From Escherichia coli (GTDB lineage Bacteria; Pseudomonadota; Gammaproteobacteria; Enterobacterales; Enterobacteriaceae): a DNA stretch of 64,000 nucleotides. Both the position numbers and the translations under genes were made by a program. The DNA lies in assembly GCF_045037415.1 (NCBI RefSeq), contig NZ_CP173438.1; one strand, given 5' to 3'. The notes beneath the pieces are model-generated. The model searched no databases and was not told the origin of the DNA. It saw only the letters and a program-made list of their open reading frames with translations. This document shows positions 9,715-10,110 of the stretch, piece by piece. Every line of letters starts with the position of its first letter. Within the stretch, counting starts at the first letter, position 1.

Positions 9715-10110
9715 AATGCTTCCTGTGAGGCGAAAATTATCGTTATAGGACGTTTGGGAAACGTCTTTTACCTGTCTGTGGCCATCCTCTTATAAGCAAA
9801 AGTAGTGCCAGCTTTTGCGCACGATTTCGCGTCGCAATAAGCTGAGTGTAGACAGGAAATAATAAAAACAGCGCCTCGTAATGGTGCGAAAATGAAACAT
9901 GCGCCACATTTTGGCGCAAAATATTTACGCGTTTTTTACTAAGCAGAATAATGATTGTTAGCGTGAGTATATTTCTGGTGGGAAGTGTGAAAGTTAAATT
10001 GATGCGTTATTTCGAAAGCAGCGAAATAACGTGATATAACATGCTAAATCAGCAGGGAATTACCCAGCAGAATATAGCAATATTTTATCTTATGGAAAGA
10101 TACTGTATCG

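Follow-up and report, generated by a model that had tools for sequence, protein, structure and literature searches.

A palindrome upstream of the Escherichia coli yhdWXYZ operon is probably the promoter-distal site of a conserved NtrC enhancer for a sigma-54 promoter

Does the short palindrome found in the spacer between yhdV and yhdW of E. coli have a regulatory function and, if so, which protein does it serve? The question arose from a sequence-only reading of the window (a stretch of 64,000 nucleotides, all of which was analysed), in which gcgcca-cattt-tggcgc, at 9901-9917, was described as a site with perfect 6-bp arms, about 190 bp upstream of the yhdW start, and as a possible operator for an unidentified regulator. 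The sequence and its position have been confirmed; the palindrome lies 187-203 bp upstream of the yhdW ATG (9714, minus strand). Its arms are present as described but actually reach 7 bp (TGCGCCA-CATTT-TGGCGCA, 9900-9918). The palindrome is contained in the 430-bp yhdV-yhdW spacer (9715-10144); yhdV occupies 10366-10145, and acrF and acrE are located farther upstream of yhdW. The elements of the locus considered below are the following.

8689-9714, minus strand: yhdW, an intact open reading frame of 341 aa (RefSeq: amino acid ABC transporter substrate-binding protein), with which the regulated operon begins.
9784, minus strand: predicted transcription start, 70 nt upstream of the ATG at 9714.
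9795-9811, minus strand: sigma-54 promoter CTGGCACTACTTTTGCT, an exact consensus, with the -24 GG at 9809/9808 and the -12 GC at 9797/9796.
9815-9837, no strand assigned: inverted repeat TTGCG-N13-CGCAA, which abuts the -24 element and covaries among orthologs.
9844-9856, minus strand: nearly invariant block CCTGTCTACACTC, which separates enhancer and promoter at about -60 to -72.
9870-9888, no strand assigned: putative proximal NtrC-type site, CGCACCA-TTACG-AGGCGCT on the yhdW strand, centred at about -95, an imperfect copy of the distal site.
9900-9918, no strand assigned: putative distal NtrC-type enhancer site (the palindrome), TGCGCCA-AAATG-TGGCGCA on the yhdW strand, centred at about -125 from the predicted start.

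Some additional characteristics of the region may be mentioned here. The segment 9600-10250 is 100% identical to that of strains such as SK1144, and the intact yhdW of this window differs from that of K-12 MG1655, where the gene is annotated as a pseudogene (3419042-3420066); the window, consequently, does not come from K-12. Directly after the yhdV stop codon there is a strong intrinsic terminator (10108-10140, minus strand), formed by GGGCGCGGAGCTCCGCGCTC followed by TTTTT, with a folding energy of -18.2 kcal/mol.

By itself, the palindrome is within what chance produces, and an inverted repeat of 6-7 bp is unremarkable. Perfect inverted repeats with a 5-nt loop occur 24 times in the window with 6-bp arms (naive expectation, 15.6) and 10 times with 7-bp arms (expectation, 3.9), and the 430-bp spacer alone contains three of the 6-bp kind. 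What makes it significant is its position relative to a sigma-54 promoter, the NtrC-type half-sites that form its arms, the presence of a second copy at a distance of 30 bp and the conservation that it shows among orthologs.

With respect to the promoter, a perfect sigma-54 consensus, TGGCACTACTTTTGCT (TGGCAC-N5-TTGCT), is found on the yhdW strand at 9810-9795, and its centre is 106 bp downstream of that of the palindrome. The identical motif, centred at 3416975, underlies the sigma-54 ChIP-seq peak OS34 that was observed upstream of yhdW (Bonocora 2015), and, according to Table 1 of the same work, transcription is predicted to begin 19 bp beyond the motif centre, at a distance of 70 bp from yhdW. 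In window coordinates, this rule gives the predicted start at 9784, which is not a mapped 5′ end. As only 70 nt separate this start from the ATG, the transcript does not include the palindrome, and the 430 bp that had been regarded as a leader are mostly DNA upstream of the transcribed region. The centres of the palindrome and of its proximal copy, which is nearer the promoter, are 125 and 95 bp before the predicted start, inside the range of approximately 80-150 bp upstream of a sigma-54 promoter that is expected for enhancers. A simple consensus scan of the spacer for sigma-70 promoters returned only weak matches (9/12), none of them under the palindrome on the yhdW strand. Additionally, the yhdW promoter has been employed as an NtrC/sigma-54 promoter in engineering work.

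Taken with the evidence presented below, this arrangement makes it very likely that two tandem sites serve the enhancer-binding protein NtrC (GlnG) here and that the palindrome is the one farther from the promoter; NtrC bound to them would activate the sigma-54 promoter of yhdWXYZ. In fact, EcoCyc lists two NtrC sites for this operon, at 3416868 and 3416898 (U00096.2; quoted by Aquino 2017, PMC5217608, Additional file 1, Table S1). In MG1655, we found the centres of the palindrome, the proximal copy and the sigma-54 motif at 3418847, 3418877 and 3418953, respectively. The two sets of MG1655 coordinates differ by an offset of 1978, which was fixed by equating the sigma-54 motif with the published 3416975; once it is applied, the two elements fall at 3416869 and 3416899, that is, 1 bp from the EcoCyc centres. 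The palindrome thus coincides with the EcoCyc site at 3416868 and the proximal copy with that at 3416898. When 29-mers were extracted around all the EcoCyc NtrC centres of Table S1, the annotated 17-mers at yhdW, TGCGCCAAAATGTGGCG and CGCACCATTGCGGGGCG, proved to be anchored on the left half-sites. The palindrome, its regulator NtrC and the sigma-54 promoter are, therefore, already catalogued in EcoCyc/RegulonDB, and there is nothing new in the site itself. Of the original proposal, the idea of a conserved cis-regulatory protein site of yhdWXYZ holds, but its regulator is a known one. The term operator, if it is understood as a site for a repressor, has to be abandoned, as the palindrome is an activator or enhancer site, placed upstream of a sigma-54 promoter at about -125.

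Occupancy of this promoter region by sigma-54 and by NtrC, as well as the membership of the operon in an NtrC expression module, are known from the literature. For instance, NtrC ChIP-seq peaks have been reported at the yhdW promoter at 3416958 (Aquino 2017, PMC5217608) and, for yhdWXYZ, at 3416981-3417061 (Brown 2014, where a gene-expression analysis is cited), both at a resolution too coarse for exact bases, and yhdWXZ belongs to the NtrC-3 iModulon, together with rutABCD. The summit described by Aquino is displaced by 60 bp from the nearest annotated NtrC site, toward the promoter. In the same table, the summit at glnA stands off from the strong glnA sites to a similar degree, which makes this displacement a weak argument against NtrC. 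Other regulators have also been claimed for the operon: binding of Lrp at yhdW, detected by ChIP, and an action of this protein on the operon have been reported, and regulation of yhdWXYZ by ZraSR is stated in a 2026 preprint citing Rome 2018.

The present analysis demonstrates directly how the region is built, that it carries a sigma-54 motif, that it is conserved and that the sites keep a fixed spacing. We compared 80 loci that encode orthologs of YhdW (90-99% identity) and belong to about 19 genera of enterobacteria, and the sigma-54 motif was present in all of the 79 that have upstream sequence. In these upstream regions, conservation starts at the palindrome, with 0.26 bits per column upstream of it, 1.46 in the distal site, 1.32 between the sites, 1.38 in the proximal site, 1.63 in the CCTGTCTACACTC block and 1.72 in the sigma-54 motif. 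Neither of the two 19-mers has suffered an indel in any of the 80 orthologs, and positions G2, C3, C5, T11, G12, G14 and C16 of the distal site are invariant or nearly so. Conservation in orthologous yhdW upstream regions was the ground on which the sequence-only reading had proposed to be judged, and the site withstands that challenge. Within the species, the 57-bp enhancer was matched in 4953 of 5426 complete E. coli genomes, nearly always with an identity of at least 95%; K-12 differs in the proximal site and retains the palindrome as it is. As a side observation, locus L071 (CACSKA010000008.1), titled Chryseobacterium sp. 18061, carries an enterobacterial yhdW locus that is near-identical to L068 (Citrobacter sp. 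18056), and the record is probably the result of wrong labelling or of contamination.

Only in E. coli is the palindrome perfect; most genera retain 4-6 of the 7 pairs, and only 2 of the 38 distinct ortholog versions retain all of them. None of the changes is compensatory, which favours a protein site over an RNA or DNA hairpin. The 30-bp distance from centre to centre (about three helical turns) is invariant in the orthologs in which both sites were scored. By contrast, the distance from the site to the sigma-54 centre falls into two classes, one of about -107, to which Escherichia and Citrobacter belong, and one of about -118, which comprises the other genera. The difference is approximately 11 bp, or one helical turn, as would be expected of a phased enhancer. 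The extra DNA of the longer class is apparently located in the inverted-repeat segment, some 35-47 bp before the sigma-54 motif, so that the helical phase is kept.

How well these sites fit the NtrC motif depends on how the half-sites are spaced. The canonical 17-bp box, TGCACCAnnnTGGTGCA, has no match with up to 3 mismatches anywhere in the yhdV-yhdW spacer. A symmetrised matrix of half-sites was derived from 11 NtrC sites of EcoCyc (glnA, glnK, glnH, rutA, astC, nac), which themselves score 9.3-19.3 bits, most of them at least 13.8 and the weakest 9.3. At the canonical spacing, the distal and proximal sites of yhdW score 9.6 and 8.0 bits, respectively; with a spacer 2 bp longer, they reach 18.1 bits, the highest score at this spacing in the window, and 12.3 bits. 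Neither site is, thus, a canonically spaced 17-bp box, although EcoCyc annotates left-anchored 17-mers there, and both show dyad NtrC-type half-sites (TGCACCA / TGGTGCA) when read with the longer spacer. In other words, the NtrC-like half-sites of both are 2 bp farther apart than in the 17-bp box and form a 19-bp dyad. No comparable high-scoring half-sites with this spacing were found at eight other Ntr promoters, so yhdW stands alone among the nine, and it does so in both its sites. The best canonically spaced NtrC-like 17-mer of the window, TGCGCTACCCTGGCGCA (30122-30138, 17.0 bits), is inside a 646-aa open reading frame (29242-31182, plus strand), and we discarded it as probably due to chance.

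A spacing other than the canonical one is not unique to yhdW, as one of the annotated NtrC sites of glnHp2 (EcoCyc site 847349; 169-186 of L083, the glnH upstream region of MG1655) has good half-sites with one extra base in the spacer, TGCACGATTTATAGGGCA, and scores 16.2 bits. Under both the 17-bp and the 19-bp readings, the right half-site overlaps with the conserved core, TGTGGC, and conservation cannot, consequently, tell which register is used. We infer that NtrC contacts exactly these 19 bp. We further suspect that the longer spacing makes this a weak, low-affinity enhancer that would answer only at high levels of phosphorylated NtrC.

By analogy with glnAp2, activation most likely proceeds by looping of the DNA. 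Under nitrogen limitation, phosphorylated NtrC dimers would fill the two sites, which are 30 bp apart and centred at about -125 and -95, and would assemble there into an active ATPase oligomer. The DNA in between would then loop, probably aided by bending of the conserved stretch at -60/-72, and the oligomer would touch the closed complex of the sigma-54 holoenzyme at -24/-12, leading to open complex formation and to the expression of yhdWXYZ.

Two more conserved elements are found between the enhancer and the promoter. The CCTGTCTACACTC block is preceded by a conserved T-rich tract and may bind an architectural protein or a co-regulator, and the TACACT hexamer that it contains could be a -10 element with a start just before the inverted repeat. 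Compared by eye with the IHF, CRP, Lrp, NifA-type, GlrR and sigma-70 -10/-35 consensus sequences, the block shows no convincing fit. The inverted repeat at 9815-9837 folds better than its shuffled versions (mean z of -2.2 in 74 orthologs), and its arms covary among genera (TTGCGT/ACGCAA, TTGCGTT/AACGCAA, TTACGGG/CCCGTAA and TGCATCG/CGATGCA), with 7-29 nt between them. It is followed by a terminator-like T-tract on neither strand.

A more speculative proposal, which we regard as unlikely, would combine these two elements with the 19-bp (N5) dyad. The dyad would then be more than a poor 17-bp NtrC box and would define a distinct class of site, either one that NtrC occupies in an unusual register and with a high threshold, or one that is shared with, or belongs to, another factor that gates the promoter.

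A related alternative is that the palindrome binds a regulator other than NtrC, be it a different enhancer-binding protein, for instance ZraR, or a dimeric factor fitted to the 19-bp N5 symmetry, and that NtrC is recovered by ChIP only via the sigma-54 complex. The N5 spacing, atypical for NtrC yet kept without indels, would agree with such a regulator, as would the position of the ChIP summits, closer to the promoter than the sites, and the regulation by ZraSR that the preprint mentions. In addition, the yhdW spacer is not listed for genomic SELEX with NtrC alone in the part of that source available to us, where it appears in the RpoN holoenzyme tables only. Nevertheless, the palindrome does not look at all like the ZraR boxes of the zraP-zraS spacer, GAGTAAAAATGACTCGC, and two independent surveys of ZraR binding, by SELEX and by ChIP-exo, recovered only zraP/zraSR (plus mgtA in ChIP-exo) and not yhdW. 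As the half-sites are of the NtrC type, expression tracks the NtrC regulon and EcoCyc assigns the site to NtrC, we consider a different regulator quite improbable.

The repressor operator that was originally suggested, at which transcription of yhdWXYZ would be blocked, is compatible with the dyad symmetry, which is typical of operators, and with the conservation of the site. However, the palindrome is centred too far upstream (125 bp before the start and 106 bp before the centre of the sigma-54 motif) to overlap the only supported promoter, there is no sigma-70 match under it on the yhdW strand, and the geometry is that of an enhancer; hence, there is very little probability that it acts as an operator. 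Similarly, the number of inverted repeats of this kind in the window (24 and 10, see above) is what a functionless chance repeat would have in its favour, but chance is contradicted by the conservation across about 19 genera, the fixed spacing, the phasing with the promoter and the NtrC-type half-sites, and we give it almost no credit. Finally, an RNA hairpin or intrinsic terminator that would stop acrEF-yhdV read-through on the yhdW strand is hardly conceivable: a scan flags the 7-bp stem followed by TGTTTCATTT, and the hairpin folds at -11.6 kcal/mol (z of -2.8), but this T-tract is interrupted and not conserved, the pairing is lost in most orthologs without compensation, and yhdV already has its own strong terminator at about 10108-10140. 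A search of Rfam found no matching family for the palindrome region.

Binding of NtrC to the palindrome, as the distal site of a tandem enhancer, thus remains the reading that we favour. To what is catalogued, the present analysis adds a phylogenetic footprint over about 19 genera that ties the enhancer to these bases, a half-site spacing, present in both sites, that may explain weak binding in vitro, and two more conserved elements in the yhdW promoter. These observations could guide the study of a yhdWXYZ response that differs from that of other Ntr operons, or of the reported effects of ZraSR and antibiotics.

Among the known systems, the ZraR enhancer of the zraP-zraSR spacer is also an inverted-repeat enhancer that serves a sigma-54 promoter, but its GAGTAAAAATGACTCGC boxes are unrelated to the TGCGCCAAAATGTGGCGCA of yhdW. 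The similarity is greater with glnAp2, the E. coli NtrC (NRI, GlnG) enhancer, which has two strong 17-bp boxes (TGCACCAnnnTGGTGCA) at -140 and -108, 32 bp apart. As in glnAp2, there are at yhdW two dyad-symmetric sites, about three helical turns apart, before a -24/-12 promoter, with half-sites of the TGC(A/G)CCA type, an NtrC ChIP signal and expression under nitrogen limitation. By contrast, the half-sites of yhdW are parted by 5 central bases instead of 3, which results in the 19-bp dyad, the arms contain GCGC in place of GCAC, and the sites are placed at -125 and -95, that is, 30 bp and not 32 bp apart. Moreover, no experimentally supported sigma-70 promoter of the glnAp1 type was seen at yhdW, and its site is missing from the NtrC-alone SELEX list, as far as that list was accessible. 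yhdW also resembles the weak or non-canonical NtrC sites that EcoCyc lists at other Ntr promoters (glnHp2, rutA, astC, ddpX), which are degenerate boxes as well, some of them with the same GCGC arms (TGCGTCAGAATGGCGCA in astC and TGCACAATTTTAGCGCA in glnH).
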